This document shows positions 229-46,617 of a DNA stretch of 46,617 bases, one piece after another. Each line of letters opens with the position of its first letter. Position 1 is the stretch's first letter. Location of the stretch: contig VMFS01000005.1 in NCBI GenBank assembly GCA_007376185.1, forward strand, positions 1-46,617, read 5' to 3'. The position numbers and the translations under genes were made by a program. The DNA is from Parcubacteria group bacterium Gr01-1014_30 (GTDB lineage: Bacteria; Patescibacteriota; Minisyncoccia; Minisyncoccales; 2-12-FULL-40-12). A model generated the notes under the pieces. That model searched no databases, was not told the origin of the DNA, and saw only the letters and a program-made list of their open reading frames with translations.

Positions 229-880
229 TCAAAATCACACCAAGCCGCCTATAAAATCCGTACTTATCGCTATTTTTAGCACAGCCGTTTTGCTTGGCGG
301 CTACTTGGCTCTGGCCGCATGGCAGAGCTGGTGGCCTTTTGAATTACAAAAACAGCAGGCCTGCACGCAGGAAGCTAAAATATGCCCTGATGGTACTGCC
401 GTAGGACGAACCGGCCCAAACTGCGAGTTTGCAGAGTGCCCGCCCGACCCAACCGCTGGCCTTGTCCCGAGCGAAGTCCAAGGGTGGCAAACCTATCGCA
501 ACGAGGAGTATGGGTTTGAGGTGAAGTACCCTGGAAATTGGCTCGTTAGTTTAGGTGATCCTCCGAGTCAATCTTCTCCAGCTTTTGGGCCAGCCGAAAA
601 TTATAGACCTCTAATTTTTATTAGAGCTGGTGCAAGATCATTGGACATGCTTGAGCGATCCTTAGATTCTACTATTTTAGAGAGAAATGAAGTAGTGATT
701 GGTGGCATGAAAGCTGAGGTTGTATTATACCAGCCACACGCACAAAGTTTACCGGAAAAAGACGTATTTTTTAGTAAAGATGGAATTGATTATCTTATTA
801 TAGGCAAAGAAGGCACAGAGGATGAAAAATCTTTAGAAATTTTCGACCAAATCCTCTCCACGTTCAGGTTTTTGGACTAA
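221..880 (+). CDS. Membrane-anchored surface protein, paralog 1 (TM + CTQEAKxCPDG Cys motif + PsbP-like WxTYxNxxYGF..YP domain)
   Basis: N-terminal hydrophobic helix, [43 protein letters not shown]-terminal ILSTFRF. Confidence 0.85.
461..484 (+). repeat. 24-bp in-frame insertion (LVPSEVQG), half-copy of the TTCGA..CTCA/TGAGC..CGAA short repeat family
   Basis: cttgtcccgagcgaagtccaaggg; removal restores PTAG-WQTY; resembles 7581-7601, 24001-24025 and 25771-25794. Confidence 0.6.
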
Positions 881-893
881 ATTATTTAGTTCC

Positions 894-921
894 TTGCATT
901 TATGTGTAATTTAGCTATGAT
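894..921 (+). promoter_or_regulatory. Sigma70-like promoter, probably leaderless transcript of the TA pair
   Basis: TTGCAT-16-TATGAT, ATG 6 nt downstream. Confidence 0.55.
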
Positions 922-927
922 GTAATT

Positions 928-1158
928 ATGACGGTAGCCACTATACCAAAAGAGCTTACTCGAAAAGGCGAGTTGGTAGTAATTCCTCGCAGAGAATACG
1001 AGGATTACTTGCGTTTCAAAATAACTGAAGTGAGGCGTTCAAAAGCTAAAATTGATGCAGGGCTTAGAAAATCGCTGCAAGAACTTCGGCAAGGAAAAGC
1101 AGTGGGTCCCTTCGGCAGCGCAAAAGATCTGATGAAATCTTTGAAATTCGTCCGTTAG
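928..1158 (+). CDS. Putative antitoxin
   Basis: 76 aa, GELVVIPRREYE and ELRQGKAVGPF.SAKDLMKSL motifs, directly upstream of a RelE-like gene. Confidence 0.7.
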   Translation: MTVATIPKELTRKGELVVIPRREYEDYLRFKITEVRRSKAKIDAGLRKSLQELRQGKAVGPFGSAKDLMKSLKFVR

Positions 1159-1161
1159 CTC

Positions 1162-1407
1162 ATGCAAGTTGAATATACTCCTCATTTTAAGAGAAAATTT
1201 GCAAAGTTGTCCGACGTAGTTCAGAGTAAATTTGAAAAGAAAATAACATTACTCTTGCGCAATATCCGCCACCCGTCGTTACACGCTAAAAAATTTGACG
1301 AAGCAGGAGATATTTGGCAGGCGCGCGTGGACGACAACGCGCGTTTTTATTTTAAAATTACAAGAAACACATATTCTCTTCTTGATATTAAGAAACATAA
1401 GGACTAA
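1162..1407 (+). CDS. RelE/ParE-superfamily toxin
   Basis: 81 aa, YTPHFKRKF..L..HPSLHAKK..IWQARVDDNARFYF pattern. Confidence 0.75.
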   Translation: MQVEYTPHFKRKFAKLSDVVQSKFEKKITLLLRNIRHPSLHAKKFDEAGDIWQARVDDNARFYFKITRNTYSLLDIKKHKD

Positions 1408-1410
1408 AAA

Positions 1411-2034
1411 GTGGGTGATTCTCCTCAAAACAAAAGCAATACCTATGTAGTTGTTGGACTCATCATTGCTGCCGTCCTACTCGGCGGATATTTTGCTTTG
1501 GCCGCATGGCAACTCTGGTGGCCGTTTGCAGTACAGCAACAGCAGGCTTGCACTCAGGAAGCTAAACTTTGTCCCGATGGTTCATATGTAGGCCGCACCG
1601 GCCCCAACTGCGAATTCGCCGCCTGTGCAGGAGAAGTTGATGTCTCCAATTGGCAAACCTATCGCAACGAGGAGTATGGAATAGAATTTAAATATCCCAA
1701 AAGCTGGGATGTTAAAGAGTATTTAGGAGAAGGGCAGATAGAGATTTTGGAATATATTCCAGATACACATAATGTAATTTATGTTACTGAAAGCGCTCGC
1801 TCTCTAGAAGAGTGGTTAATAGCTGACGATGAGTGGTCTCTTTATTATGACCCTGAAATGATGACAGACGCAGAGCCATTTCTTATTGGGGGAGAGGAAG
1901 CGCTTTCTGTACAAATTAGCGAACTTGTTCTTCCCATGACTATTATTGGTATCAGAAAAAGCGGACGTCTTTATATTATTGAGAGTAATTCTGGATTAAT
2001 AGATATCCTTTCCACCTTCAGGTTTATTGAATAA
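1411..2034 (+). CDS. Membrane-anchored surface protein, paralog 2
   Basis: Same [25 protein letters not shown] scaffold as 221-880 with an unrelated central region; GTG start. Confidence 0.85.
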   Translation: MGDSPQNKSNTYVVVGLIIAAVLLGGYFALAAWQLWWPFAVQQQQACTQEAKLCPDGSYVGRTGPNCEFAACAGEVDVSNWQTYRNEEYGIEFKYPKSWDVKEYLGEGQIEILEYIPDTHNVIYVTESARSLEEWLIADDEWSLYYDPEMMTDAEPFLIGGEEALSVQISELVLPMTIIGIRKSGRLYIIESNSGLIDILSTFRFIE

Positions 2035-2039
2035 TTTTT

Positions 2040-2237
2040 ATGCAGAGAGTTTCAAAAGCAAAAGTTAGGGCAAAGTTTCTGGAAAGGAAATCCGCACAGG
2101 ATATTCAGGACGAAATTTTTAGGAGCATGTCGGCCGGCAAGAAAATTAAACTTACATCCGATTTTTCAATGTTTTTATTAAAACAAAATCAAAATGGATT
2201 TCGAAGACTTAATCACAAAAATAGCCGCAATACTTGA
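2040..2237 (+). CDS. Small protein partnered with the nucleotidyltransferase (TA-like pair)
   Basis: 65 aa, AQDIQDEIFRSMSAGKKIKL motif, overlaps the NTase start. Confidence 0.6.
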   Translation: MQRVSKAKVRAKFLERKSAQDIQDEIFRSMSAGKKIKLTSDFSMFLLKQNQNGFRRLNHKNSRNT

Positions 2238-3252
2238 CAAATTGTCGATTCCGTACGCCATTACCGGTGGCTACGCAGTTTCTGTATGGGGACGCCTTAG
2301 GGCAACTTTTGATATAGATGTTATCGTTGAACTCTCAGTAGTCAAAGGAGGTGAGTTAACACAGGCGCTCAAAGCGCTCTCTAAATCTGGCTATATTGAT
2401 GAGCTGATGGTGACGGACGCTGTTGAAAGTAAGGGAGAATTCAATTTTATCCATACCGAGTCCGGCATAAAAGTGGACTTTTGGGTGATGGAGCAAGATG
2501 GTTACGGCAGAGAAAAGTTAGCAAGACGCATTCCCCGCAATGTTCTAGGTCAGAGGGTGTACTTTGTTTCTCCCGAAGATCTTATTTTAAGCAAACTGCT
2601 GTGGTATAAAGAAAGCGAGTCAAATCTTTTTCAAAACCAACCTCGCGAGGAACCACCGACTAAGCCAGATTTCGTAGATGATTCCAGGCGGTCACTAAAG
2701 CTGCCACTCGCTATTATTTTAATCGTCGCCGCTTTGCTGACTAGCTACTTTGCTTTGGCCGCATGGCAAATCTGGTGGCCGTTTGAAGCACAAAAACAGC
2801 AGGCATGCACTCAAGAAGCAAAACTCTGTCCCGACGGTTCATATGTCGGCCGCACCGGGCCAAATTGTGAATTCGCCGAGTGCCCGGACTTTGTGGAAGA
2901 TATAATTTTTGGCCTCGAAGCAGAGGAGTTTTGCGGCCCTGAACCGCCGGCAGAATGTGGGCTTGGAACGCGGCTCGGTTGCAGAGTTGCTGACAAAAAA
3001 TGGGATTGCTACGATAATATACCAACTAGTCAGCCCATAGTAACTTTTGAACAATGCGTCGCAGCTGGAAATCCAGTGATGGAAAGTTTTCCGGAACAAT
3101 GTCGGGATAAAAGCGGAGCACTGTTTGTGAATTGGCAAGGAGCCGGCCAGTTTTGTATACAGATTATAGCCCCTGCTAGAAATCCGGCAACAGGCGAAGT
3201 CAGAGAATTTCCTACGCCCTGCGACGTGCCCGAGGGCTGGAAACAAATTTAG
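2194..3252 (+). CDS. Chimeric ORF: nucleotidyltransferase N-terminal 143 aa fused to membrane surface protein paralog 3
   Basis: YAITGGYAVSVWG..RATFDIDV NTase motif up to 2622, then TM helix, CTQEAKLCPDG, FEQCVAAGNPVMESFPEQC and FPTPCDVPEGW Cys modules. Confidence 0.75.
   Translation: MDFEDLITKIAAILDKLSIPYAITGGYAVSVWGRLRATFDIDVIVELSVVKGGELTQALKALSKSGYIDELMVTDAVESKGEFNFIHTESGIKVDFWVMEQDGYGREKLARRIPRNVLGQRVYFVSPEDLILSKLLWYKESESNLFQNQPREEPPTKPDFVDDSRRSLKLPLAIILIVAALLTSYFALAAWQIWWPFEAQKQQACTQEAKLCPDGSYVGRTGPNCEFAECPDFVEDIIFGLEAEEFCGPEPPAECGLGTRLGCRVADKKWDCYDNIPTSQPIVTFEQCVAAGNPVMESFPEQCRDKSGALFVNWQGAGQFCIQIIAPARNPATGEVREFPTPCDVPEGWKQI
2524..2622 (+). repeat. 99-bp exact direct repeat, copy 2 (ends at the fusion junction)
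   Basis: Identical to 1-99. Confidence 0.97.
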
Positions 3253-4520
3253 TGAATAGTTTTGCGGTGAAGTTTGCGGTAATAGCCGATGGCAAAGCGG
3301 TGGGCTTCTGCGTCAACTCGGAGTAAAAGATTGCGCAGTTCGGGCACTAACTCTGAGAGCTTAATTGGCTCTTTTTTATTGCTTTCGTATATTTTTACTC
3401 CTTTGTGACGGCTGTCTTTGGTCAGCGCGATGACATTAGTTTTTAGTTTGTAGTTTTTAGTTGTTAGTAAGGCGGCGTTGAGTTGCGCTTTACCTCCGTC
3501 AACAACTATCAAGCCGGGCAGAGGCCATTCTTTGTGGCGGAAGCGGCGCGTCAATACCTCTTTTAACATAGCTATGTCGTTGGGTTTTTTGTGCCAGCGA
3601 ATTTTAAACTTTCTGTATTCTTGTTTGTCGGAGCGGCCCTCTGTGAAAACAACCATGGCGCCTGTCGCAAACTTTCCTTGAATGTTAGAGACGTCGTAAC
3701 CTTCTATTCTGCGCCACTTCCTCGGCGGCGTAGCCGCTGCCGCTGCAGCTTGGTCTAACACTTTCGCGTTAGACATTACTTTTTCAAGAGAAACAATTCG
3801 GTCTCTTAACAGAGCCGCTTTTTCAAAGTCATGTTTTTTGCCGGCTTTTAACATCTCTTTTTCTAAGCGCAGGAGAACAGTTCTCCTTTGCCCTTTTAAT
3901 ACTTTGATTAGGTTTTTTATGTTTGCCTGATAACTTTTGGGGTCGGGGTTTGGCCCAGGGCAAAGGTTCAGATGGCACCAGGGGCATTTTGTCGCGGGGT
4001 GCTTTCGGGCCATATAGTACGGAAAAACTTTTCTTAGATATTTCAAAGTTTGCTTCAAAGCCCTTCCGTCCACAAACGGCCCAACGTAATTAGTTTTTAG
4101 TTTGTAGTTGGTAGTTTTTAGTTTCGTTTGGTGCGTTATAAGCATGCGGGGCAATTTTTCTTTGGTAACGGCTACGTAAAAGTAGTTCTTGTCGTCGCGC
4201 CATAAAATGTTGTATTTGGGCTTGTGCTTTTTTATTAACTTTGCTTCAAGAAGCAGGGCCTCAATTTCAGAGCCGGTCTCAAGATAGCTAACCTTCTTGG
4301 TTTGTTTAAGACGCTCTCGGTGCTGTTTGACTCTTTCACGCAGGTTGGCCGCTTTGCCGATGTATAAAACCTCTTTGCCCTTTTTGAAGATGTAAACCCC
4401 GGGGCCCTTTGGCAGCCTGCTCACTTGACCCCGTAATACAACTTCCGGCGCGTTCTTTTCAAGAACGCGAAGTCGCCGTAGGCGACCGGAAGATGATATA
4501 CGGGGTTGAGATATTTTCAA
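3249..4520 (-). CDS. uvrC: Excinuclease ABC subunit C, compact form lacking the C-terminal HhH domain; start uncertain (TTG 4520 or GTG 4424)
   Basis: LPKGPGVYIF..YIGKA.NLRERV GIY-YIG domain, FEKAALLRD UVR motif, RIEGYDVSN / PGLIVVDGGKAQ / DAEAHRFAI RNase H-like domain. Confidence 0.92.
   Translation of the reverse strand: MKISQPRISSSGRLRRLRVLEKNAPEVVLRGQVSRLPKGPGVYIFKKGKEVLYIGKAANLRERVKQHRERLKQTKKVSYLETGSEIEALLLEAKLIKKHKPKYNILWRDDKNYFYVAVTKEKLPRMLITHQTKLKTTNYKLKTNYVGPFVDGRALKQTLKYLRKVFPYYMARKHPATKCPWCHLNLCPGPNPDPKSYQANIKNLIKVLKGQRRTVLLRLEKEMLKAGKKHDFEKAALLRDRIVSLEKVMSNAKVLDQAAAAAATPPRKWRRIEGYDVSNIQGKFATGAMVVFTEGRSDKQEYRKFKIRWHKKPNDIAMLKEVLTRRFRHKEWPLPGLIVVDGGKAQLNAALLTTKNYKLKTNVIALTKDSRHKGVKIYESNKKEPIKLSELVPELRNLLLRVDAEAHRFAIGYYRKLHRKTIH
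3436..3468 (-). repeat. ACTA(A/C)(A/C)A heptamer tract in-frame in uvrC (TTKNYKLKTN)
   Basis: + strand ttagtttttagtttgtagtttttagttgttagt. Confidence 0.8.
4090..4124 (-). repeat. ACTA(A/C)(A/C)A heptamer tract in-frame in uvrC (KLKTTNYKLKTN)
   Basis: + strand ttagtttttagtttgtagttggtagtttttagttt. Confidence 0.8.
4429..4505. mobile_element. 77-bp miniature inverted-repeat element (CCCCGT...ACGGGG) with TTGA direct repeats
   Basis: About 20-bp imperfect terminal IR, two inner hairpins (cgcgttctt/aagaacgcg; gtcgcc/ggcgac), TTGA at 4425-4428 and 4506-4509. Confidence 0.8.
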
Positions 4521-4534
4521 CTTTTGTGTATAAT
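4506..4534 (+). promoter_or_regulatory. uvrA promoter (likely leaderless)
   Basis: TTGAGA-17-TATAAT, ATG 8 nt downstream. Confidence 0.65.
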
Positions 4535-4542
4535 TAGCGACC

Positions 4543-7479
4543 ATGACGATAGGCAATTATATCAAAATTCGTGGAGCCAGGACACACAATTTAAAAAACG
4601 TGAACGTTGACATACCAAAGAATAAACTGGTGGTGATTACCGGCATTTCGGGTTCGGGAAAATCATCTCTTGCCTTTGACACGCTTTACGCCGAAGGCCA
4701 AAGAAGATATGTGGAGTCCTTGTCCGCTTACGCAAGGCAATTCTTGGGCGTGATGGAAAAACCCGACGCCGACTCAATTGAAGGCATAAGCCCTGCCATT
4801 TCAATTGACCAAAGAAAGGCCTCGCACAACCCCCGCTCTACCGTCGGCACTATCACCGAAATCTACGATTATTTGCGACTTCTTTTTGCCAGAGCTGGCG
4901 TTCCTCACTGCCCCAAGTGTAAAAAAAAGGTTTGGCGGCAAACAATTGACCAAATTGTGGAGCAGGTTTTGAAACTTCCCAGAAAAACTGAGATTTTAAT
5001 TTTGGGCCCGGTGGTTTCGGGCAAAAAAGGCGAACACCAAGGCGTGGTGGAAGAAATCAAGAGAGCCGGCTTTGCCAGGGTTAGAGTAAACGGAATAACT
5101 TACCGTACAGAAGAAGCCCTTGGCACAAAGTTGGACCGTAATAAAAAGCACAACATTGAAGTGGTGGTGGACAGATTAGTCCTTGATAAAGATTTGGATA
5201 GGACGAGGTTAGTGGACTCTTTGGAAACGGCTTTGAAGCTGGGCAAAGGAACGGTTAGCGTTAATCGTTTAGCGCAGCCCGTATCGTCTAACGTTAGACG
5301 TAAGACGGCAAACGAAACGGGTAGCGATAAACGACAAACGACCAACGATTTACTGTTTTCAGAACATTTTGCTTGCGAGGAGTGTGAAATTTCTTTGCCG
5401 GAGTTGGAACCGCGCCTTTTTTCTTTTAACAGCCCTTTTGGCGCTTGTTCTCCCTGCCAGGGCCTTGGCGAGAAACTTGAGGTTGACCCAAAATTGGTTT
5501 TGCCAAACCCTAACCTGTCAATTGCCGAGGGCGCCATTTTCCCTTGGGCAAGGGCTTCGCACAAAGTTGGGCGCCAGGGGTTTTTTTGGTGGCAGCTGCA
5601 AGAGCTGTCGGAAAAGGAAAAAATTGATTTGAACTCACCGGTTAAAAACTTGCCCGAAGACAAAGTTGATTTAATTCTGGAACTTGTCGTTTCTTCTTTG
5701 GAAAGGCGATACCGCGAAACGGACTCAGAATATACAAGAGAGGAAATTGAGCAGTATATGGTGGAGAAAAAATGCGACAAGTGCAAAGGTAGAAGATTGA
5801 AGCCAGAGGCCTTGGCCGTAACCGTGGCCGGTAAATCAATAGACGAAATCGTTGAAACGCAAGTTGATAGAGCTAAAGAATTCTTTGAAAACCTACTAAA
5901 CCCTAAACCCAGCCCTTTCTGGAAAGAGCGGGGTAAACCCTATACCCTAAACCCTCAAGTGCGCAAGATTGTTCAGCCCATCGTTAAAGAAATCGTTAAT
6001 CGCTTGCAATTTTTGGTTGACGTCGGCCTTGAATATTTAACTATGGACAGGAAAGCTCAAACTTTGGCAGGCGGAGAGGAGCAAAGAATAAGGTTAGCCA
6101 CTCAGCTTGGTTCAAAACTGACCGGTGTTTTGTATATTCTTGATGAACCATCGGTTGGCCTTCACGCCAGAGACCAAGGGCGACTTATCGCGACCTTAAA
6201 GGAGCTGAGGGATTTGGGTAACACCGTTGTGGCTGTTGAACACGATTCCCAAACCGTGCACGCTTCTGACTGGGTGGTGGATATTGGGCCCGGAGCTGGG
6301 AAACACGGCGGCAAAGTAGTTTTTGAGGGAACGCCCAGGGCGCTGTTAAAGGCCAATACGTTGACCGGGAAGTACTTATCAGGGAGGTTAGCGGTTAGCG
6401 TTAATCGTTTAGCGCAGCCCGTATCGTCTAACGTTAGACGTAAGACGGCAAACGAAACGGGCATCGCTACCGATAAACGAAAGACGAATTACTTAATTAT
6501 AAAAGGTGCTAAAGAGCACAACCTTAAAAACATTGACGTTAAGATACCACTGGGGAAGTTCGTGTGTATCACCGGCGTTTCGGGCTCGGGTAAAAGTTCT
6601 TTGATGCAAGACATTTTGGCCAAGGCCTTAATGAAAAAGTTTTACAGGGCAAAAGAAGAGCCGGGGCTACACGAGAAAATTTTGGGAACAGAACATTTGG
6701 ATAAAGCTGTCGTGGTTACCCAAGAACCTATTGGCAGAACCCCAAGAAGCAACCCAGCCACTTACACCGGCGCCTTTACATATATAAGGGATATTTTTTC
6801 CTCGACGAGAGAAGCCCGCGTGCGCGGATACAGACCAGGCCGTTTTTCTTTCAACGTTAAGGGCGGCAGGTGCGAGGCGTGCGAGGGCCAAGGCGTAAAA
6901 AAAATTGAGATGTACTTTTTGCCAGACGTCTATGTTGAGTGTCAGGAATGCAAAGGAAAAAGATTTAACAAAGAAACTTTGGCGGTGGAGTATAAAGGGA
7001 AAAACATAGCCGACGTTTTATCAATGACCGTGGAAGAGGCCTTGGAGTTTTTCAAAAACATACCGGCTCTCCATGCAAAGTTGAAAACGCTCAACGACGT
7101 TGGTTTGGGTTACATTGAAGTGGGCCAGCCGGCGCCCTCTTTGTCGGGAGGGGAGGCGCAAAGAGTAAAACTGGCAACGGAACTGGCAAGAAAGGCGACT
7201 GGCAGGAGTTTGTATATTCTGGATGAACCCACAACTGGGCTTCACTTGGACGACATTAAAAAATTGATTTTCGTTTTACGCGGCCTTGTTGATAAAGGCA
7301 ACACGGTGCTTTCGACCGAACACCAGATAGATTTTATTCGCGCTTCTGACTGGGTAATAGATTTGGGTCCGGAAGGCGGGGACAAGGGCGGCAGAATCGT
7401 GACCGAAGGCCCGCCTTCAGAAATCGCCAAAAACAAAAAAAGCTATACCAGTAGATATCTAAGATCGGGAAGGGCTTGA
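4543..7479 (+). CDS. uvrA: Excinuclease ABC subunit A
   Basis: GARTHNLKN, two [10 protein letters not shown] Walker A motifs, Zn fingers, L(A/S)GGExQR signatures, LYILDEP. Confidence 0.99.
5252..5321 (+). repeat. 70-bp palindromic in-frame insertion in uvrA, copy 1
   Basis: Identical to 6392-6461; contains the perfect 16-bp palindrome cgtctaacgttagacg. Confidence 0.95.
5896..5955 (+). repeat. CCCTAAA heptamer tract in uvrA with a nested 26-bp hairpin element (5908-5933) flanked by TAAA repeats
   Basis: ctaaaccc-TAAA-cccagccctttctggaaagagcgggg-TAAA-ccctataccctaaaccct. Confidence 0.8.
6392..6461 (+). repeat. 70-bp palindromic in-frame insertion in uvrA, copy 2
   Basis: Identical to 5252-5321, same reading frame ([23 protein letters not shown]). 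Confidence 0.95.
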
Positions 7480-7504
7480 CAATGTTTTTTGGTTGTAATA
7501 ATAT
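7476..7504 (+). promoter_or_regulatory. groESL sigma70-like promoter
   Basis: TTGACA-17-TAATAT upstream of CIRCE. Confidence 0.6.
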
Positions 7505-7517
7505 CCAAAGGTAGTAA

Positions 7518-7620
7518 TTAGCACTCAACCCGTTCGATTGCTACTCAGGGCTTCGGCCGTGAGCGGCTCAGCCGAACGGTTGTCCTGAGCAAGCCGAAGG
7601 ACAAAGGTCTTAATTGCTAA
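7518..7620 (+). promoter_or_regulatory. CIRCE (HrcA operator) interrupted by a 73-bp insertion
   Basis: Perfect left arm TTAGCACTC at 7518-7526; candidate right arms GATTGCTAC (7536-7544) and AATTGCTAA (7612-7620); position upstream of groES. Confidence 0.75.
7529..7601. mobile_element. 73-bp palindromic element (TTCGA..CTCAGG/CCTGAGC..CGAAGG family) with CAA direct repeats
   Basis: ctcagg/cctgag and ttcggc/gccgaa arms; CAA at 7526-7528 and 7602-7604. Confidence 0.7.
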
Positions 7621-7631
7621 TACATAAAACT

Positions 7632-9574
<1,943 letters not shown>

Positions 9575-9607
9575 AAATAGGCCTTAGCCCTATAGACTTT
9601 GGTTATC

Positions 9608-9639
9608 CCTGCCCTTGGGCATAGGGGGCGGGTTTTTTT
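9608..9639 (+). terminator. Probable intrinsic terminator after groEL
   Basis: GC-rich hairpin cctgccc..gggcggg followed by T7. Confidence 0.55.
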
Positions 9640-9673
9640 GTTATTTGTGAAATCTTGGGTATAATATATATTA

Positions 9674-10390
9674 ATGTTAGCCAAGGATAAGGAAAAGCCA
9701 AAGTTGGCCGAAGTTGTTTCCATTACCGCTCATTATTTGAGAAACCCCCTAACCATTATTAGGACTTATCTTGAGGCGTTGATTTTCGAGGATTTGGGTA
9801 AAATCAATCAAAAACAAAAAGAATATCTTTTGGATGCTTTGGAGAATGTTAAGAGGATGAAAGAAACAGTTAATCAGTTTTTGGACATCTTTCTGGTTGA
9901 GGAAAAAAGATATAAAATGATATTAGAGCCCGCTGTCTTGGGAGATTTAACTGACGAAGTAATCGGGGATTTTTCACTTTTGACCAAAGCCTCTAATTGT
10001 GAAGTTTTTTTTAGAAAACCAAAAAATCTGCCCAAAGTCTTAACTAATCAACTGAAAATTCGTCAAGTGATTGAGAATTTGATCTCCAACGCCTTAAAGT
10101 ATAAAAGGATAGGCCGTGGTAAAATAGAAATAGCTTTGGTTAAATCAGGCAAAAACATTGTATTTTCTTGTAAAGACGACGGCATAGGAATTCCCCACAA
10201 GGATTTTAAGAAAGTATTTACTAAATTTTATAGATCAGAACAGGCCATAGAGTCAGATCCTTCGGGTGCCGGCTTAGGTCTTTATATCAACAAGGCTATT
10301 ATTGAGTTAAGCGGCGGTAAAATTTGGTTTAAAAAAAATAAAGATTTTGGCATGACTTTTTACTTCAGATTACCTATCGCTCAAGTATGA
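9674..10390 (+). CDS. Sensor-less histidine kinase (HisKA + HATPase_c)
   Basis: AHYLRNPLT H-box, NLISNALKY N-box, DDGIGI, FTKFYRS, GAGLGL. Confidence 0.9.
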   Translation: MLAKDKEKPKLAEVVSITAHYLRNPLTIIRTYLEALIFEDLGKINQKQKEYLLDALENVKRMKETVNQFLDIFLVEEKRYKMILEPAVLGDLTDEVIGDFSLLTKASNCEVFFRKPKNLPKVLTNQLKIRQVIENLISNALKYKRIGRGKIEIALVKSGKNIVFSCKDDGIGIPHKDFKKVFTKFYRSEQAIESDPSGAGLGLYINKAIIELSGGKIWFKKNKDFGMTFYFRLPIAQV

Positions 10391-10776
10391 ACAAACTGAA
10401 TATGAAACAGAAAATCTTGATGATAGAAGACGACCATTTTTTACGGAAAGTTTATCGAGACAAGTTAATTAGGGAAGGTTTTGATTTTATTGAAGCAACC
10501 AATGGCATTGAGGGGACAAATAAAATTATTTCTGAGAAACCAGACCTGGTTTTATTAGATTTAATTTTGCCCAAAAAAAATGGCTTTGACGTATTAATTG
10601 ATGTGAAGAGGAATAAAGAGACCGCTAACATTCCGGTTATTATCCTTTCCAACCTGGGTCAGGAGTCAGATGTAAAGAGAGGACTCTCTTTGGGGGCAAA
10701 GGATTATTTAATTAAGCCGGAAGTTGGTCTCTCTCAAGTGATAGCAAAAGTGAAAGAATGGTTAGTTAGAAAGTGA
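10387..10776 (+). CDS. Single-domain response regulator (REC)
   Basis: ILMIEDD, PDLVLLDLILPKKNGF, VIILSN, GAKDYLIKP. Confidence 0.93.
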   Translation: MNKLNMKQKILMIEDDHFLRKVYRDKLIREGFDFIEATNGIEGTNKIISEKPDLVLLDLILPKKNGFDVLIDVKRNKETANIPVIILSNLGQESDVKRGLSLGAKDYLIKPEVGLSQVIAKVKEWLVRK

Positions 10777-10782
10777 TTTTCA

Positions 10783-12468
10783 ATGAAAGTAGATATTGAA
10801 GGTCTTAAAAAAATTTTGGTGGATTCAAATTTAATTTCTGAAAGGGATTTTAATTTGGCGACAAAGGAAGCCAAAGAGCAGAAGAAATCCCTGCAAGATT
10901 TAGTTGTTGAAAAAGATTTAATTTCTGACGAAGAACTCGGTCAGTTAATTGCTGACCAAATTGGCTTTCCTTATATCAACCTTAGCAAGGCCAAGGTACC
11001 AAAAGAAATTTTAGAAATTGTTCCCGAGCTGGTTGCTAGAGAACAAAAAATTATCGCCTTTGACAGGACCCAAGAGGGTTTAAAATTGGCAATGGCCAAC
11101 CCCGAGAATTTAGAGATAAGAGAATTTATTGAAAGAAAAAGCGGCGAAAGAGTCATACCTTATTTTGCCACCTCAAAAGATATTGAAGATGTTTTAAAGT
11201 TTTATAAGAAGGGAATCAGAGTAGAACTGGAAAAATTGGTAGGCAGAACTTTAAAAGAAGTTGAGCAAAAAACAAAAACGTCCGAAGAGCTCCAGCTGCC
11301 AGTTATTAAAATTACGGAACTAATTTTAAATTATGGTTATGAAAACCGAGCTTCGGATATTCATTTGGAACCCTACAAAAATAAAACAATCTTGCGGTAT
11401 CGAATCGACGGAGTGCTGCACGATGTTTTGACCTTGCCAAAATTTTGCCACGATCTTTTGGTCTCGCGAATTAAAATTCTCGCCAAACTGAGAACCGATA
11501 TCCACGAGATAGCTCAAGATGGCCATTTTTCTTTTGAGGTTCCTGCCGAAAAAGTTGATGTTAGGGTTTCAGTGGTGCCGATTGAAGAAGGCGAGAAAGT
11601 GGTTTTGAGATTACTTTCTGAGCGTGTCCGTAAATACGATCTTGAAGATTTGGGACTGCTGGAGGAACACGCCAAAATTATTAGAAGGAATATTAAAAAA
11701 CCCTGGGGAATGACTTTAATTTCGGGTCCGGCGGGCTCTGGGAAAACTACCACCTTATACGCGGTCTTGAAAATTTTAAATACCAGAAACGTTAACATTA
11801 TGACGATTGAAGACCCGATAGAATATGACATAGAAGGGGTTAATCAAATTCAGGTCAACCCAAAGACCAATTTAACTTTTGCCGAAGGTTTAAAAGCAAT
11901 TGTTAGACAAAATCCGGATATTATTATGGTTGGCGAAGTCAGAGACATAGAAACAGCCAAATTAACGGTCAATGCCGCTATGACCGGCCACCTGGTTTTA
12001 TCAACTTTTCATGCCATAGATTCTTCCACCACTTTGCCGCGCCTATCCGACATGGGGACAGAGCCTTTTCTAATTACCTCAACAGTAAACCTGATCATCT
12101 CTCAAAGATTGGTTCGCAAAATTTGTCCCAAATGCATTGAGAGTCATAAAGAATCTTTCTCAGAAATAGCCAAGCTTTTGGGAAGAGATTTAACTCTCAA
12201 ACCAAAAACAAAGGATGAAACTTGGCTTTTTAAAGGTCGGGGTTGCCCTCTTTGTCAAAAGACCGGCTATTTTGGCAGGACAGGTATTTTTGAAACCCTG
12301 GAAATGCAAGAGCCAATAAAAAAATTGGTTATGACCAAAGCCAATGCCGATCAAATTAGAAAGGCAGCCCGAAGCCTCGGAATGAGAACAATGATTGAAG
12401 ACGGTTTTGAAAAAGTTGAAAGAGGCATCACCACCTTGGAGGAAGTTTTAAGAGCCATTAAAGAATAA
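10783..12468 (+). CDS. pilB: Type IV pilus assembly ATPase (PilB/GspE family)
   Basis: ASDIHLEP, RYRIDGVL, GPAGSGKTTTLY, TIEDPIEY, PDIIMVGEVRD, tetra-Cys motif. Confidence 0.95.
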   Translation: MKVDIEGLKKILVDSNLISERDFNLATKEAKEQKKSLQDLVVEKDLISDEELGQLIADQIGFPYINLSKAKVPKEILEIVPELVAREQKIIAFDRTQEGLKLAMANPENLEIREFIERKSGERVIPYFATSKDIEDVLKFYKKGIRVELEKLVGRTLKEVEQKTKTSEELQLPVIKITELILNYGYENRASDIHLEPYKNKTILRYRIDGVLHDVLTLPKFCHDLLVSRIKILAKLRTDIHEIAQDGHFSFEVPAEKVDVRVSVVPIEEGEKVVLRLLSERVRKYDLEDLGLLEEHAKIIRRNIKKPWGMTLISGPAGSGKTTTLYAVLKILNTRNVNIMTIEDPIEYDIEGVNQIQVNPKTNLTFAEGLKAIVRQNPDIIMVGEVRDIETAKLTVNAAMTGHLVLSTFHAIDSSTTLPRLSDMGTEPFLITSTVNLIISQRLVRKICPKCIESHKESFSEIAKLLGRDLTLKPKTKDETWLFKGRGCPLCQKTGYFGRTGIFETLEMQEPIKKLVMTKANADQIRKAARSLGMRTMIEDGFEKVERGITTLEEVLRAIKE

Positions 12469-12474
12469 TATGAA

Positions 12475-13693: not shown

Positions 13694-13696
13694 TCA

Positions 13697-15009: not shown

Positions 15010-15010
15010 A

Positions 15011-33922: not shown

Positions 33923-33963
33923 AAGGTCGTTTTAAAACATTAATACTATTACCAATTAAGTCG

Positions 33964-34064: not shown

Positions 34065-34089
34065 GCGTAGTGCAACGAGCCGCGACTGA

Positions 34090-34332
<243 letters not shown>

Positions 34333-36785: not shown

Positions 36786-37678
36786 ATGGAGTCCTTGCAA
36801 AACATAAAATCGCGCCTTCGCGCAGTTCGCAACATCGGGCAGATTACCAAGGCAATGGAAGTTGTGGCCGCTACTAAAATGAGGAAAAGTCAGGAAATAG
36901 CTCTCAGGACTCGCCCTTATGCTTTCAAAGCGCTTGAACTTTTGAGCAAACTTAGCCGCTTCTCACCTCTGGAAACGGCTTTGACCAAAAAGCGGCAGGT
37001 TAAGACAACTTTACTCGTTGTCATTGCTTCTGACCGCGGTTTGGCTGGCGCTTTCAACACTCAAGTATTTCGATCAGCTGAAAAGCTATTCAAAGCCGAC
37101 AGTGTTTACGCGGCCGTGGGAAAGAAAGCAGGAAAGTTTATTTTGAAAAAAGGTTTATCTTTGGTTTCCGGTTTTCAGGGTTTTGGCGATTTTGTGAGAT
37201 TTGAAGACATAAAGCCCTTGGCCGACTTTGTCATAGACGGGTTTAAATCGGCCAGGTGGGACCGTGTAGTTACCGTGTCAATGCATTTTCGCACGGCTTT
37301 AAAACAAGAGATGGTAAACCAGCAGGTTCTTCCAGTTGACTTTGAAAAAATTGAGGAGACCGTAAAGGCAATAGTCCCGGAACACGGTAAGTACGCAGAA
37401 TCTCTACCAACTACCAACTACAAACTACAAACTGCAGGCATTGACTACCTGTTTGAGCCTTCTGCCAAAGAAACGCTTGAAATGCTCATACCTCATTTGG
37501 TTAAAATGCAGATTTATCATTTGGTGCTGGAGGCAAATGCGTCTGAACATTCCGCAAGAAGAGTGGCTATGAAGCAGGCCTCTGACAACTCAGACGAGCT
37601 TTTTTCCGCTTTTACCCTTCAGTACAACAAAGCTAGGCAGGAAGCAATCACCAAAGAAACGATTGAAATAACGTCAAC

Positions 37679-37691
<13 letters not shown>
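36786..37691 (+). CDS. atpG: ATP synthase gamma subunit (C-terminus altered by insertion)
   Basis: QITKAMEVVAA, SDRGLAGAFN, ASEHSARRVAM, YNKARQEAIT. Confidence 0.98.
37404..37431 (+). repeat. CTAC(C/A)AA heptamer x4 in-frame in atpG (LPTTNYKLQT)
   Basis: ctaccaa ctaccaa ctacaaa ctacaaa. Confidence 0.85.
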
Positions 37692-39368
<1,677 letters not shown>

Positions 39369-41941: not shown

Positions 41942-43663
41942 ATGGCAAGCTCGCAGGTTGCCGAAATCAAAAACCGTCTTGACATCGTTGAACTAATCGG
42001 CTCTTACATAAAACTCCAGAAAGCTGGAGCCAATTTTCGGGCTCTCTGCCCTTTTCACTCGGAAAAAAGCCCGTCGTTTTTCGTTTCGCCCTCGCGCCAA
42101 ATCTGGCATTGTTTTGGAGGTTGCGGGCAGGGCGGCGACATTTTCAAATTTATAATGCTGATTGAAGGCGTGGAATTCGGCGATGCCCTGCGTCAGTTGG
42201 CTCAAAAAGCCGGAGTGGTTTTAAAAAGAGAAAGCCCGGAATTGCGCACTCAACGCCAGCGGCTTTACGAAATTTGCGAGCTGGCAACTTTGTTTTTTGA
42301 AAAGCAGTTGGAAGAACAAAGGAGCGGAAAGTTAGCCAAAGAGTATCTTCTGAGGAGGGGCATTAACGAAGAGTCAGTCAAAAAATGGCGCATAGGTTGG
42401 AGCCCAGAGGTTTGGCAAGGACTTTCCGATTTTTTGGTGAGCAAAGGGTTCAGCAGAGCAGAGATTGAAAAAGCAGGGCTTTCCGTTAAAAGCGACAAAG
42501 GATCTTTTTACGACAGATTTCGCGGCCGCATAGTTTTTCCGGTGTTTGATTTGAGTTCTCAAGTAGTCGGCTTTGGCGGCAGGGTTTTTGCTTCGTCCGC
42601 CGAAGCTTTAGCGAAGGCGGAGAAAGAGCAAGTTGCAAAATACGTTAATATTCCCAATACTTTGCTTTACGATAAAAGCCGGATTTTGTATGGTTTGGAC
42701 AAAGCCAAGCAAGACATCAGGCAAAAGCAAGAGTGCATACTCGTTGAGGGTTACACCGACGCCATTTTGGTTTCTCAAGCAGGCTTTCCCAATGTTGTGG
42801 CGGTTTCGGGCACAGCTTTAACTCCTTTTCATCTAAATATCCTTAAAAGATATTCAGAAAACCTCTTAACGGCTTTTGACATGGATTTTGCCGGAGATTC
42901 CGCCACCAAAAGAGGCGTTGATTTGGCTCAGGAGATGGGTTTTAACATAAAAGTTCTGCTGCTGTCGGAAGGTTCAGACCCAGCCGATATTGTCGCTCAA
43001 GACGCGGGACTCTTTTCAAAACTCTTGCAGGAGGCCCGTTCAATACTTGAGTTTTATTTTGAAACAACTTTTTCGCGTTTTAACCCGGCTTTGCCCGAAA
43101 ATAAAACAGCGATTTCCAAACTTTTGCTCCCAGTCATTAAAAGAATTCCCAACTCCATTGAGAGGTCTTTTTGGGTTAGAGAATTGGCGAGGCGCCTTGA
43201 AGTGAGAGAAGACGATGTGCTGGAAGAGTTAAAAAAAGTCGGGCCAAAAAAATACGACCGAGTTCCAGAAAATCAGGAGACCACTGTCGTACATCAAAAA
43301 TCGCGCCGAGAACTTTTGGAAGAACAACTTTTGGCGCTGGCGTTTAAGTTTCCCGAATGCCTAAAATCGCTTGACCAAGAGGCCCAAGTCGTTCTTGCCG
43401 ACTTAAAACACAGAGTCGAGGCGCAGCAAGAGTATTTTAACTATATTTATTTGAAAGCCGAAGTGGAAGAACTGCAAAAAAAAGATGCCCTGCCCGAAAT
43501 TCAGTTCTGCCTGAAAGAAATCAAGTGTTTGGACATTAAAAATGAACTGGGGCAAATTTCCAGAGAGATAAAAAAGGCGGAGCAAGAAAGAAACATTCAG
43601 AAAACGGCTGAGTTGACCAAGAAGTTTGACCGAATAAGCAAAACAATGATTCAGCTAACGTAA
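41942..43663 (+). CDS. dnaG: DNA primase
   Basis: CPFHSEKSPSF..WHCFGGC, DRFRGRIVFP, VEGYTD, FDMDFAG TOPRIM. Confidence 0.98.
   Translation: MASSQVAEIKNRLDIVELIGSYIKLQKAGANFRALCPFHSEKSPSFFVSPSRQIWHCFGGCGQGGDIFKFIMLIEGVEFGDALRQLAQKAGVVLKRESPELRTQRQRLYEICELATLFFEKQLEEQRSGKLAKEYLLRRGINEESVKKWRIGWSPEVWQGLSDFLVSKGFSRAEIEKAGLSVKSDKGSFYDRFRGRIVFPVFDLSSQVVGFGGRVFASSAEALAKAEKEQVAKYVNIPNTLLYDKSRILYGLDKAKQDIRQKQECILVEGYTDAILVSQAGFPNVVAVSGTALTPFHLNILKRYSENLLTAFDMDFAGDSATKRGVDLAQEMGFNIKVLLLSEGSDPADIVAQDAGLFSKLLQEARSILEFYFETTFSRFNPALPENKTAISKLLLPVIKRIPNSIERSFWVRELARRLEVREDDVLEELKKVGPKKYDRVPENQETTVVHQKSRRELLEEQLLALAFKFPECLKSLDQEAQVVLADLKHRVEAQQEYFNYIYLKAEVEELQKKDALPEIQFCLKEIKCLDIKNELGQISREIKKAEQERNIQKTAELTKKFDRISKTMIQLT
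42596..42621 (+). repeat. 26-bp palindromic in-frame insertion in dnaG (SAEALAKA)
   Basis: tccgcc-gaagctttagcgaa-ggcgga between the GFGGRV and AKYVN motifs. Confidence 0.6.
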
Positions 43664-44818: not shown

Positions 44819-44822
44819 GGAG

Positions 44823-45341
44823 GTGGTGATGACAAGCCGCCGAAAAAAAAGATTTGCAAGGACTGTTGTGAACTTCTTGGCACAGCTGTTCCCATTCTTT
44901 ACCAAAAAAAGGGGGGTTGCCTTGATTGTCAGGAACCAGATAGGGTTAATTCTTGTGCTTCGGGAGCTCGAAACAAAGCCTGAAATTGGCAAGCATGCCG
45001 GAATGTTTTCAATTCCAATGGAGACGGTTGAGCCGGGGGAGCATGACGTTCAGGCTATTAAGCGGCTTATTGAAGAGGAATTGCCCGGCTTAATCTCAAA
45101 AATCAAAGTTGTGCAGACGAGATTTGGTCTTTATAGAGTCGGCCACCGCACTTGGGCCACACTTTATACTGCCACTGCTTCCGATGACTCCTTGCCCGAC
45201 CCACAAGCCGTCGGCGTTGCCGGACACCAGTGGGTTTCCCCACCAGAAGCGTTGGCCTTGCATTTGCGCAGAGGGGCCAGAGAAATGATTGAAGATTACA
45301 TTAGTGGGCGTTCGTTCGTAGTACGTCGTAACTGCCGTTGA
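44823..45341 (+). CDS. Nudix-fold protein with degenerate Nudix box
   Basis: GMFSIPMETVEPGE..QAIKRLIEEELPG, HQWVS. Confidence 0.7.
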   Translation: MVMTSRRKKRFARTVVNFLAQLFPFFTKKRGVALIVRNQIGLILVLRELETKPEIGKHAGMFSIPMETVEPGEHDVQAIKRLIEEELPGLISKIKVVQTRFGLYRVGHRTWATLYTATASDDSLPDPQAVGVAGHQWVSPPEALALHLRRGAREMIEDYISGRSFVVRRNCR

Positions 45342-45345
45342 ATAT

Positions 45346-46152
45346 TTAAAGCAACACAGTTGTTCCTTTCACCGTTTGACCGATTAACACTTTACTTATG
45401 AGATAAGGCCTTTGTCCGTTAAACACAAAGGCCTTCTTATTTTTTAGGAATGCTAGTTGCTTCAACTTACCTGGCATTTGTCCCGAAACGTCGTTTGCTC
45501 CCATTTTTTCAATAGCGCCGTGTTTTTTTATCAGCGAGTTAAGTTCTTTTCGGTCAAGAAGTTTCATAGGTCTTTCGCTTCTTGACGGCGGAAAATTTTT
45601 ATAAACACCCTCAACGTCCGTGGCGAAAAGAATTTGAGAGCTCTTGATTTTTTTGGCCAGGATTACGGCTATTTCGTCAGCTGAAAGAATATAAACTTTG
45701 TCGCTTCCGCCCAAAACCAAGTCGCCGCCCAGCAGAGGCGTACCTCCTCTTTTGACGATTGTTTCAAGGACGGAAAAGTTTCTCAAAATGGTTTTATCTC
45801 GCTGCCTTTCAAACAAAGAGCTTGTTTGCAGGGGGACCAAAGGCAGGCCTGTTTCTGCAAATATTTTGGCAATTTGGTTGCCGAGGTTTCTTAAAGTTGT
45901 AATAACTTCGGCTATGTTCCTCAAAGAGTAGGTTTCAATTTTGCGATTTTTTAACTTGTACTTATAAACAAGCGGATGGCCGAAAGATCCTGCTCCATTC
46001 AGCAGAATGAGCTTCAGCTTCGGTTTTTGCCTTAGAGCGCCGGCGATTTGTTTAGCGGTTTTTTTGACAAATGCAGTTTTCAAAACTGGTTTGCCGAGTT
46101 TTTTTTGGGTGATAATACTTCCGCCGAGCTTGAGAATTATGGTTTTTGGCAT
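45346..46152 (-). CDS. Isopentenyl phosphate kinase (amino-acid-kinase fold)
   Basis: ILKLGGSIITQK, GAGSFGHP, PLLGGD, ILSADEI, TDVEGVY, DVSGQMPGKL. Confidence 0.85.
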   Translation of the reverse strand: MPKTIILKLGGSIITQKKLGKPVLKTAFVKKTAKQIAGALRQKPKLKLILLNGAGSFGHPLVYKYKLKNRKIETYSLRNIAEVITTLRNLGNQIAKIFAETGLPLVPLQTSSLFERQRDKTILRNFSVLETIVKRGGTPLLGGDLVLGGSDKVYILSADEIAVILAKKIKSSQILFATDVEGVYKNFPPSRSERPMKLLDRKELNSLIKKHGAIEKMGANDVSGQMPGKLKQLAFLKNKKAFVFNGQRPYLISKVLIGQTVKGTTVLL

Positions 46153-46211
46153 CAACTTAATTATATCATGATTTGATATTACGGCCGTAACCTGCTAATA
46201 TACAAAAGTTC

Positions 46212-46617
46212 ATGAAGAAATCTAAAAAGCCAAGAAAGATTGGCGCCAAAAAGTTAAAGAAAAGGATCTCAAAACGCAAACCTCGCAAGAAAGTTGTTTC
46301 AAAAAAAGCGGCGCGCAAGAGTAATCCAAAAAAAAGAAAAAGAGTGATCCGCCGGGGACCCCGAAGTAGAGCAGGCTCACTACGGGGCAGGGTTTTTTCG
46401 CCGGAAAAAGTTGCAGAGCTTGTTGACAAAGGAAAGGAAAGGGGCTTCGTTACAATGGCTGAAATCTTATATTTCTTTCCCGAAATGGAAAAAGACGTTC
46501 AAGGTCTGGAGAACTTGTACGAGGTTTTGGAGAAAGGCGGCGTTGAAGTAAAAGAAACAAAGGGATTTTTGCAAATCCAAGAAGAGTCGGGCAAGAAAGC
46601 CGCAAAAGTACTGGAAC
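46212..46617 (+). CDS. rpoD: RNA polymerase primary sigma factor, 5' part (basic extension + region 1.1), runs off the window; not in the ORF track
   Basis: Open frame from ATG 46212: Lys/Arg-rich leader, then LVDKGKERGFVTMAEILYFFPEMEKDVQGLENLYEVLEKGGVEV; near dnaG. Confidence 0.85.
   Translation, partial: MKKSKKPRKIGAKKLKKRISKRKPRKKVVSKKAARKSNPKKRKRVIRRGPRSRAGSLRGRVFSPEKVAELVDKGKERGFVTMAEILYFFPEMEKDVQGLENLYEVLEKGGVEVKETKGFLQIQEESGKKAAKVLE
46359..46387. repeat. Short hairpin element in-frame in the rpoD N-terminus
   Basis: ccccgaagtagagcaggctcactacgggg; resembles 25072-25104. Confidence 0.6.

Follow-up and report, generated by a model that had tools for sequence, protein, structure and literature searches.

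Contig VMFS01000005.1 of the Parcubacteria group bacterium Gr01-1014_30 carries about two dozen short, mostly palindromic pieces of DNA inside and between its genes. The explanation favoured here, to which we give a probability of roughly 0.7, is that they belong to several families of DNA transposons, non-autonomous and spread through the genome, that resemble MITEs (miniature transposable elements with inverted repeats), mixed with hairpin modules and heptamer tracts. The stretch analysed, here called the window, is 46,617 bp long and is the entire contig C4 of a genome of 11 contigs and 769,151 bp (97.1% complete, 0.83% contaminated); this genome is labelled G000, positions without a contig number refer to the window, and positions elsewhere in the genome are given with contig numbers. 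An original prediction, made from the letters of the window, had proposed about 25 elements in at least four families. We could place 24 discrete pieces of 24–208 nucleotides (nt), and all four of the classes it named are represented. Its further claim, that these are non-autonomous insertion elements with recent activity, is upheld by copies elsewhere in the genome, by flanking duplications, by empty sites in relatives and by the identity of two copies within uvrA.

The class of CCCCG…CGGGG inverted repeats comprises 4429–4505, 12475–12653, 15018–15127, 16035–16133 and 46359–46387, the 7-mer tract class comprises 3435–3468, 4089–4124, 5896–5960, 21442–21472, 34822–34845 and 37393–37433, and the class of three-hairpin ~100-mers comprises 22043–22141 and 33946–34091; TGAGC/CGAA-type hairpin modules form the fourth. 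Heptamer tracts also make up the arms of the element at 23083–23290 and of two 78-nt repeats in uvrA. Pieces are often nested, as had been predicted: 12482–12525 lies within 12475–12653, 23099–23152 within a heptamer arm of 23083–23290, and a hairpin within 5896–5960. When the window was compared with the genome by blastn-short, 28 window intervals had further copies. Ten of these read as paralogous or low-complexity coding sequence (1–99, 300–520, 1492–1621, 1651–1697, 2017–2106, 2524–2622, 2744–2886, 20649–20682, 28108–28205 and 28629–28901) and the rest are short elements. An item that had been placed at the left edge, at 461, was dropped, as it falls in a gene family repeated within the window and on C6. 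A small PsbP-like, DUF6036-linked gene family is present in three tandem copies at 1–3252 and again at C6:1–750, where that contig begins; stretches of 99 and 90 nt are 100% identical among the tandem copies and to the C6 sequence.

Comparison of the genome with itself gave 314 repeat intervals covering 26,979 nt (3.5%) and linked into 94 families, some of which are pieces of paralogous genes; by this measure and by blastn-short each major family recurs outside the window. The longest alignment between repeats is 339 nt and none exceeds 400 nt, and a multi-copy insertion sequence (IS) is therefore absent from the genome. The repeats are far in excess of chance. Inverted repeats of the CCCCG…CGGGG type with a stem of at least 7 bp number 77 in the genome against 4.2 ± 2.0 in 10 shuffles, and hairpins with 10-bp stems number 103 in the window against 42.9 ± 7.1 by chance. 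Arrays of period 7 reaching a score of at least 36 in Tandem Repeats Finder (TRF) number 88 against 0 and 1 in two shuffled genomes, and at a low TRF threshold there are 257 arrays of period 7, 54 of period 5 and 72 of period 8. Rough calling of open reading frames (ORFs), which over-predicts genes and of which the coding/intergenic split serves only to judge spacer enrichment, placed 140 repeat intervals in coding sequence, 126 in intergenic sequence and 48 on a boundary between the two; it assigned 90% of the genome to coding sequence. Repeats are thus enriched in spacers.

Two CCCCGT-ended transposon families

Two families with CCCCGT ends are genuine miniature transposons: they end in inverted repeats and duplicate 4 bp of their target. 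The CCCCGTAATACAAC...ATGATATACGGGG family has 18 full copies of 67–109 nt in the genome, none with a transposase ORF, and its terminal inverted repeats are 18 nt long with a 3-nt mismatch at the centre. A direct repeat of at least 4 bp abuts 14 of the 18 copies (17 of 18 at 3 bp or more); when the positions were moved by 11 nt as a control, 1 of 18 had one. The duplicated sequence varies by copy (TTGA, TATG, CTTG, CAAAG, TGAAA, TAAA and others). Copies examined in other genomes of the order have a 4-bp duplication in 10 of 11 cases (control 1 of 11). The CCCCGTTAGAAGT...ACTTCTAACGGGG family occupies 16 loci of 74–194 nt, with perfect terminal inverted repeats of 13 bp and an exact 4-bp duplication at 10 of the 16 (11 of 16 at 3 bp or more); its control gave 0 of 16 even at 2 bp. 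The flanking direct repeats that had been predicted for the window were in part located, namely TTGA (4425–4428/4506–4509), TGAA (12471–12474/12654–12657), CGTT (12478–12481/12526–12529) and CGA (around 23099–23152); TAAA, CAA and TCAA could not be tied to particular window elements, and TATG around 25167–25237 was found in addition.

The two families insert into each other. The window copy of the second, 179 nt at 12475–12653 (+) between TGAA and TGAA, contains a 44-nt element at 12482–12525 (+) between CGTT and CGTT, and the copy at C3:20591–20721 has an intact CCCCGTTAGAAGT end without the 44-nt insert. Similarly, the copy of the first family at C11:135172–135280 holds a nested 35-nt CCCGTAGA...TCTACGGGG element between TCCG and TCCG, and in a sister copy the same hairpin is uninterrupted. 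The first family is represented in the window by 77 nt at 4429–4505 (+), flanked by TTGA on both sides and situated within uvrC, 13 codons past the start; the fold of 4405–4520 has a computed energy of −50.8 kcal/mol. A covariance model of the family (R1), of which 4429–4505 is the best match at 92.3 bits, detects 18 loci in this genome; of 150 further genomes searched in the order, 17 have matches, one to three apiece. Both families are expanded here, with 18 and 16 copies against 1–3 in most carrier relatives.

The first family reaches well beyond this genome. A search for the exact 16-mer of its left end alone would be expected to give ~280 chance matches, so only copies with both ends were counted. 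With the right end required within 200 nt, 39 copies were found in 80 public-genome loci; nearly all their hosts are labelled as lineages of the candidate phyla radiation, most copies are 130–147 nt long, and an exact duplication of 4 bp flanks 29 of the 39. At least 120 metagenome contigs match the two-ended pattern. Among the matches listed, copies are 113–143 nt long and 68 of 84 have a 4-nt duplication, most often TATG (17), TTGA (10), TGAA (8) or CTTG (7). Viral contigs in IMG/VR gave no exact two-ended match to either the long or the short form, and a viral vector was rejected on that ground. No autonomous copy, in the form of an end pair 1–3 kb apart, was found in the 80 public-genome loci.

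Many copies lie exactly at the start of a gene. The 179-nt element in the window is situated in the second codon of pilC, and the present GTG start of this gene consists of the last G of the element followed by the right copy of TGAA. Excision of the element with one TGAA restores an ATG start in frame with pilC, and in relatives G004 and G001 (two orthologous loci; relatives compared here are genomes of 0.3–1.5 Mb labelled G001–G030) there are a few bases between the pilB stop and the pilC ATG. In this genome the duplication of the CCCCGTTAGAAGT family is on an ORF start in 5 of 11 cases (C3:20591, C5:8382, C6:34121, C10:36030 and the window copy), compared with 110 of 4000 random sites. The CCCCGTAATACAAC family lacks the habit in this genome (2 of 17, one of them a spurious internal GTG in uvrC). 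Among its public-genome copies the duplication overlaps the start of an ORF of at least 80 amino acids, with a short upstream extension, in 18 of 32 cases, of which 16 share one orientation and 2 have the opposite one; of all TATG sites in the same loci, 205 of 1913 are at ORF starts. In the metagenomes, among the matches listed, the corresponding counts are 25 of 68, with orientations of 24 against 1, and 315 of 2762 control sites. At starts the duplication, often TATG or TGAA, recreates the start codon. The excess reflects either a choice of target or the survival of harmless insertions.

Twelve two-hairpin copies of the CCCCGTAATACAAC family fit a Y-shaped fold of 26 pairs, 10 of which show compensatory changes; none of 500 shuffles reached 10 pairs and slid controls gave 0–4. 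Across genomes the outer stem covaries and two loop motifs are constant. It is conceivable, if quite unlikely, that the elements are chiefly functional RNA or DNA modules, such as leaders, terminators, processing stems or protein-binding sites, which are kept by selection and for which mobility is secondary. The covariation speaks for this, as does the nearly uniform orientation of copies at ORF starts (16 against 2, and 24 against 1 among the metagenome matches listed), and some CCCCGCCC hairpins end in terminator-like runs of T, stems of this kind bracket three tRNA genes and one variant of the 100-mer lies between tRNA genes. However, swapping of whole hairpin modules in palindromic DNA could mimic covariation, copies also occur within coding regions, where such roles are hard to see, and relatives manage without elements at the same spacers. 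Nor was any Rfam family matched: with Rfam 15 the window gave only a tRNA-Ser at the gathering threshold (23817–23904), and five element copies gave no match at E ≤ 1. The three tRNA genes bracketed by CCCCGCCC...GGGCGGGG inverted repeats are at C2:4406–4508, C7:69503–69602 and C1:12751–12857 of G000, and these repeats may be processing stems or may mark captured genes.

The conserved, covarying fold is also the sole point in favour of spread through RNA, be it by retro-elements or by small RNAs that carry a ribozyme and return to DNA by copying. We regard this as highly improbable, as the genome has no match to the reverse transcriptase domain (PF00078), no ribozyme or other Rfam match was obtained, and the combination of terminal inverted repeats and a duplication fixed at 4 bp typifies DNA transposition.

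Repeats in genes and spacers

Reading frames and protein lengths also speak for the transposon explanation. The claim that intragenic pieces keep the reading frame stands for all 12 of them (three each in uvrA and uvrC, and one each in dnaG, atpF, atpG, a pilin leader, rpoD and an AlkA-like glycosylase gene) and could not be substantiated for a surface protein, where 27974–28088 is a 12-nt tandem array. In 4 of the 12 the frame used is the only open one of six, and for the 78-nt repeats in uvrA it is the one open frame among the three of that strand. Open frames throughout are predicted by selection on translated inserts, and would not be predicted if the inserts were removed at the RNA level. 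In alignments of UvrA, DnaG, AtpF and UvrC, all six length gains specific to the window coincide with a repeat, a hairpin or a heptamer tract. Palindromic repeats lie in frame in conserved genes, where they would specify peptides that are absent from orthologs, in uvrA (three times), dnaG, atpF and uvrC.

UvrA was aligned with the solved protein of G. stearothermophilus (2r6f) and 16 orthologs of at most 80% identity, and contains three extra segments (amino acids ~238–263, ~452–472 and ~618–643) shared by none of the 16. Two of these are copies of a 78-nt repeat with a palindromic core and heptamer arms of the CGTTTAG type. Copy 1 (5252–5329, +; amino acids 238–263) is without counterpart in 2r6f, and copy 2 (6392–6469, +; amino acids 618–643) lies in the linker joining the two ATPase halves and makes the protein ~13 residues longer there than in G002. 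The copies are identical at 70 of 70 nt (copy 1 against 6392–6461) and at 96% over 78 nt, and share frame and peptide; such identity has the appearance of recent activity. The remaining segment is specified by a tract of TAAACCC units at 5896–5960 (+; amino acids 452–472; TRF) with an inner hairpin at 5913–5928, in which one of six frames is open, and it makes UvrA ~16 residues longer than in the nearest ortholog, that of G002. The UvrA proteins of G001, G027, G024 and G005 (L007, L014, L015 and L017) carry unrelated extra segments of their own at the same variable points and at others, and the phenomenon is therefore not limited to this genome; in some of these segments Ala, Gly, Arg and Ser abound, as they would in a translated GC-rich repeat. 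UvrA of the window is also short of ~9 residues (YG..FEG) at amino acid ~379 (nt ~5675–5690), a stretch found in all 15 aligned orthologs that span the region.

In uvrC the 77-nt transposon and its 4-bp duplication add up to 81 nt, exactly 27 codons. With 4429–4505 and one TTGA taken out, UvrC has 16 residues before a conserved LP, compared with 13–14 in relatives; the N-terminus is then of a length like that of relatives, and the element is therefore read as translated and not as spacer. The start codons of the divergent uvrC and uvrA genes apparently overlap back to back (4542–4545), with no spacer between them, and in relatives the two genes are separated by 0.5–1.7 kb.

Other genes carry further pieces. 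A 110-nt inverted-repeat element with 23-bp stems (CCCCGCCCTTTCTCC...) at 15018–15127 (+) starts 7 nt past the ATG of a pilin-like ORF and encodes a leader of 38 amino acids, open in frame up to a G/FTLVELL cleavage motif that is shared with 17376–17415. It has a 92% copy at C6:4363–4472, and the fold of 15000–15140 has an energy of −67.4 kcal/mol. In atpF a heptamer tract of AAATCCC units at 34822–34845 (+; TRF) specifies the C-terminus (IKSQIPNS), which is 4–7 residues longer than in three orthologs. In dnaG a 24-nt hairpin module at 42597–42620 (+) adds seven residues (SAEALAK) and is the sole window-specific insertion in comparison with 15 DnaG orthologs; an identical 24-mer is found at C9:44272–44295. 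Finally, a 29-nt CCCCG...CGGGG mini-hairpin at 46359–46387 (+) lies in the Lys/Arg-rich N-terminal extension of rpoD (amino acids ~50–59), and no second copy of it was found in the genome.

Between genes, the 110-nt pilin element has relatives in the CCCCGCCCTCTA...TAGAGGGCGGGG family, of which a 99-nt member is situated upstream of pilM at 16035–16133 (+; fold computed). This family has 18 strict copies in the genome, with lengths that cluster at 44–61 and 97–101 nt. An inverted repeat with 17-bp stems at 17253–17317, between pilM and a pilin gene, is without a second copy in the genome by blast and may be a terminator. A heptamer tract of AAACTAW units at 21442–21472 (+; repeat finding and TRF) lies immediately 5' of the LemA start. 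A three-hairpin ~100-mer at 22043–22141 (+; fold computed) separates the LemA gene from that of the M48 peptidase, and its 3' side is abutted by a 23-nt palindrome at 22142–22164 flanked by GAGCGA on both sides. The core of the 100-mer, CCCGTNNNGGAAAA, occurs at 20 genome sites, and a variant lies directly between or beside tRNA genes at several sites. The spacer between the M48 and Zn-ribbon genes holds a 208-nt inverted-repeat element at 23083–23290 (+), with arms of CGAAATY heptamers at 23153–23172 and 23244–23263 and a family of 20 genome intervals. Nested in its left heptamer arm, between CGA and CGA, is a 54-nt three-hairpin element, CCACAGCCC...GGGCTGTGG, at 23099–23152 (+); all six genome copies of this element are in heptamer arms, and arms without it exist, e.g., at C6:59254. 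A 71-nt inverted-repeat element at 25167–25237 (+; fold computed) is flanked by TATG on both sides, and so is its 96% copy at C6:64034–64105.

Relatives lack several of these spacer elements. A second copy of the 100-mer with an extra hairpin at 33946–34091 (+) lies between atpB and atpE, in a spacer of 167 nt; the element is absent from all three relatives compared, with spacers of 44 (G002), 99 (G020) and 47 nt (G005). The order LemA–M48–Zn-ribbon is conserved in seven of seven relatives. The LemA–M48 spacer is 145 nt here and ~40 nt or less in five of the seven, and the M48–Zn-ribbon spacer is 139 nt here and 0 to ~40 nt in six. Together with UvrA, which is free of the extra segments in 16 of 16 orthologs, and the two pilB–pilC loci, these spacers confirm the predicted empty sites in relatives. 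At the end of atpG, two tandem 44-nt units that are 98% alike (37679–37766, +) extend across the stop codon into the atpG–atpD spacer. The unit occurs at five more genome sites, and the C-terminus of atpG diverges from that of G002 from there onward. It holds a stop codon and, along with a hairpin, a stretch rich in purines, and a reverse-complement piece of it is present in the M48–Zn-ribbon spacer of G002, after the M48 stop.

The host genes had been named correctly, as judged by Pfam. The window encodes uvrC (3249–4556, −) and uvrA (4543–7479), groEL and a two-component pair, pilB, pilC, pilM and pilins, cohesin/dockerin proteins, LemA, the M48 peptidase and the Zn-ribbon protein, the AlkA-like glycosylase, two glycosyltransferases, an ATP-synthase operon in the order atpB-E-F-H-A-G-D, dnaG (41942–43663) and, at the window end, rpoD, which begins at 46212. 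The F-type ATP synthase operon is patchy in the order: the gamma subunit was found in 4 of 30 relatives (E ≤ 1e-20), compared with 28 of 30 for each of uvrA and dnaG.

The search for a mobilising enzyme, and possible formation in place

As had been noted, there is no transposase in the window, and domain searches and inspection of flanks found none with matching ends in the genome. DDE_Tnp_1, DDE_Tnp_1_4, IS1380-type and TnpB (PF07282) domains gave no match in the genome, other transposase families lying outside this search. The absence of TnpB and the presence of target duplications led us to reject an IS200/IS605-derived type. One ORF with a Y1_Tnp domain is present (C6:22611–23243, 44 bits), scoring 19.1 bits against the NCBIfam RAYT model with its cut-off of 80, and it is flanked by GGGACWGTCCC palindromes which occur at these two places only; since they do not match the dispersed repeats, this ORF was rejected as a mover of the REPIN/RAYT type. 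The genome also has one tyrosine recombinase and two divergent rve ORFs with flanks unrelated to the element ends. An rve domain is present in four of five further carrier genomes, and in six genomes the element end motifs were not found near the rve ORFs. A stand-alone GIY-YIG nuclease ORF of 98 amino acids at 23997–24293 (+; PF01541, 49 bits) is mentioned as context. Besides UvrC the genome has seven small GIY-YIG ORFs, with no established link to the elements; the one in the window and an ORF with a ParE-type toxin domain (25451–25732) are situated in the least conserved and AT-richer part of the window. With the genome 97% complete, an autonomous copy may therefore lie unassembled.

Several observations weigh against transposition as the general explanation. 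First, there is the lack of a transposase with matching ends just described, and presence of rve does not track carriage of the element: among the genomes sampled from the order it occurs in 4 of the 18 that carry the element and in 27 of the 133 that do not, on which ground rve was rejected as the mobiliser. Second, none of the 18 strict copies of the CCCCGCCCTCTA family has a target duplication. Third, no empty-site allele was seen in the contigs of the sole public run in which the window was found; the run is labelled as a groundwater metagenome, consists of contigs and is possibly the source sample. Over 3300–23290 its contigs break at element copies (5281/5292, 6421/6432, 12499/12523, 15057/15080 and 22112/22134), and the joints at these breaks derive from other copies of the families or from other organisms. 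Fourth, that the inserts are translated is something we infer from reading frames only. Fifth, both heptamer tracts in uvrC have counterparts at the same sites in other genera, built from other units: units of the AAATCCA and GAAAATT types in G009 (GAAAATT at the site of 4089–4124), CAATYAR in G026 and AAACTAW in G021. Finally, a perfect 35-nt palindrome with 15-bp stems at 32134–32168 (+), in the AlkA-like glycosylase gene (amino acids 41–51; one of six frames open), aligns gap-free with 2yg8 and 2h56 over a conserved stretch and leaves protein length unchanged; it is therefore not an insertion.

The first of the two uvrC tracts, of AAACTAN units on the coding strand at 3435–3468 (−; TRF period 7, 4.7 copies), specifies amino acids 364–374 (LTTKNYKLKTN), has one of six frames open and aligns gapless with solved UvrC chains, protein length being unchanged. 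The second, at 4089–4124 (−; TRF period 7, 5.0 copies; one of six frames open), specifies amino acids 145–156 (KLKTTNYKLKTN), and UvrC is here 4–10 residues longer than most orthologs. A tract of the AAACTAC type at 37393–37433 (+; repeat finding and TRF) lies in the variable loop of atpG (amino acids 204–216), and in G002 this loop contains the same tract type, broken by a further insert of ~50 nt. With tracts at the same sites in other genera, these are therefore old or recurrent features of permissive loops; they are best regarded as old hot spots, and insertion is unproven for them.

It could thus be argued that all the pieces form in place, heptamer tracts by slippage and palindromes by template switching or arm-to-arm conversion, and that their likeness reflects mutational bias or gene conversion. 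As a general account this is unlikely. The tracts at the two uvrC sites and in the atpG loop of other genera, with their different units, agree with it, and so do the excess of period-7 arrays (88 against 0–1 in shuffled genomes), the palindrome at 32134–32168 with its preserved length and conserved residues, and the CCCCGCCCTCTA family without duplication; the pair of copies in uvrA might likewise be a conversion event within one gene. Formation in place can, however, explain neither the copy-specific 4-bp duplications (14/18, 10/16 and, among the metagenome matches listed, 68/84), nor ends of 13–18 bp conserved over many unrelated sites and genomes, nor nested copies that bear duplications of their own. 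The glycosylase palindrome suggests that a process forming palindromes in situ may operate alongside transposition.

On the transposon explanation, the elements would be moved in trans by an enzyme encoded outside them, which may have been lost, may be unassembled, or may be the product of a host gene that has escaped recognition as a transposase. With ~90% of the genome coding, the surviving copies would be those in spacers, those at start codons, where the duplication recreates the start, and those that are in frame and free of stops in protein loops; the latter would be translated as an added peptide, in the manner of the Rickettsia palindromic elements. Heptamer tracts would be signs of permissive sites, would probably lengthen by slippage and would act as landing pads for small hairpins. 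It is tempting to go further and to speculate that the CCCCGT-ended elements form a superfamily of orphan transposons with members throughout the candidate phyla radiation and with no autonomous copy anywhere. An unrecognised enzyme of the host, cutting with a stagger of 4 bp and favouring start codons in one set orientation, would move them. With the start regenerated by the duplication (TATG, or the last G followed by TGAA), each insertion would put a leader with structure and a short reading frame ahead of a gene without killing it, and the elements would be mobile modules of translational control, with the heptamer tracts and the mini-hairpins in loops as by-products. This extended proposal is tentative and, taken as a whole, rather doubtful.

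Significance and known systems

Members of the candidate phyla radiation are commonly said to have streamlined genomes with little mobile DNA. Here ~3.5% of 769 kb is given to dozens of tiny-repeat families that alter spacers, gene starts and proteins of repair, replication and ATP synthesis. What is noteworthy is an orphan family across the phylum, its start-codon habit and the heptamer hot spots in protein loops. Orphan family and start-codon bias together make it a testable question which enzyme moves MITEs that have no parent. Filled and empty sites may provide dated markers for the tracking of strains in groundwater communities, and for annotation there is a warning, as in such genomes an unusual loop, an extended leader or a GTG start is possibly an insertion scar. 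Beside Rickettsia this would be a second, independent case of selfish palindromes turned into protein segments in a reduced genome. A search of the literature, at the level of titles and abstract openings, found no paper that describes elements of this kind from the candidate phyla radiation or from Patescibacteria.

Very small dispersed repeats of cyanobacteria, reportedly ~24-nt hairpins that lie inside other repeats and inside tandem heptamer tracts and are present also within genes (a report attributed to Elhai and co-workers in 2008), come from another phylum and have other sequences, and in the genome studied here there are, in addition, larger elements with inverted-repeat ends and duplications. 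REPINs, unlike the present elements, are extragenic and are not known to make a target duplication. REP/REPIN systems, in which short palindromic repeats accompany a single-copy RAYT (Y1) transposase (PMC3116915), are similar in that short palindromes lack a transposase of their own and in that a single-copy Y1-like gene with flanking hairpins is present; they differ in that the palindromes flanking the Y1-like gene are found nowhere else in this genome.

Bacterial MITEs (Correia/NEMIS, RUP, ERIC, BOX, Nezha) are described in a review as small and noncoding, with inverted-repeat ends, a target duplication and occasional in-frame copies (PMC10969869). The elements described here share with them size, terminal inverted repeats, target duplication, copy number, lack of coding capacity and in-frame intragenic copies. 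They differ in that a parent IS with the same ends was found neither in this genome nor in the 80 genome loci or the viral collection, and in that many copies lie exactly on start codons in one orientation, a habit that was not met in a further search of titles and abstract openings. The review also describes the Rickettsia palindromic elements (Ogata et al., 2000) as sequences of ~150 bp in several families, inserted in frame in unrelated housekeeping genes and compatible with function (PMC10969869). Compared by description and not by sequence, both cases have palindromes of several families in a reduced genome, in frame and read as an extra peptide. Unlike those of Rickettsia, however, the present pieces are 24–208 nt long, often nested and intermixed with heptamer tracts, belong to an unrelated lineage of candidate-phyla-radiation type, and include two families with clear terminal inverted repeats and 4-bp duplications. 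The finding is thus of the MITE and Rickettsia-palindromic-element kind, in another lineage.

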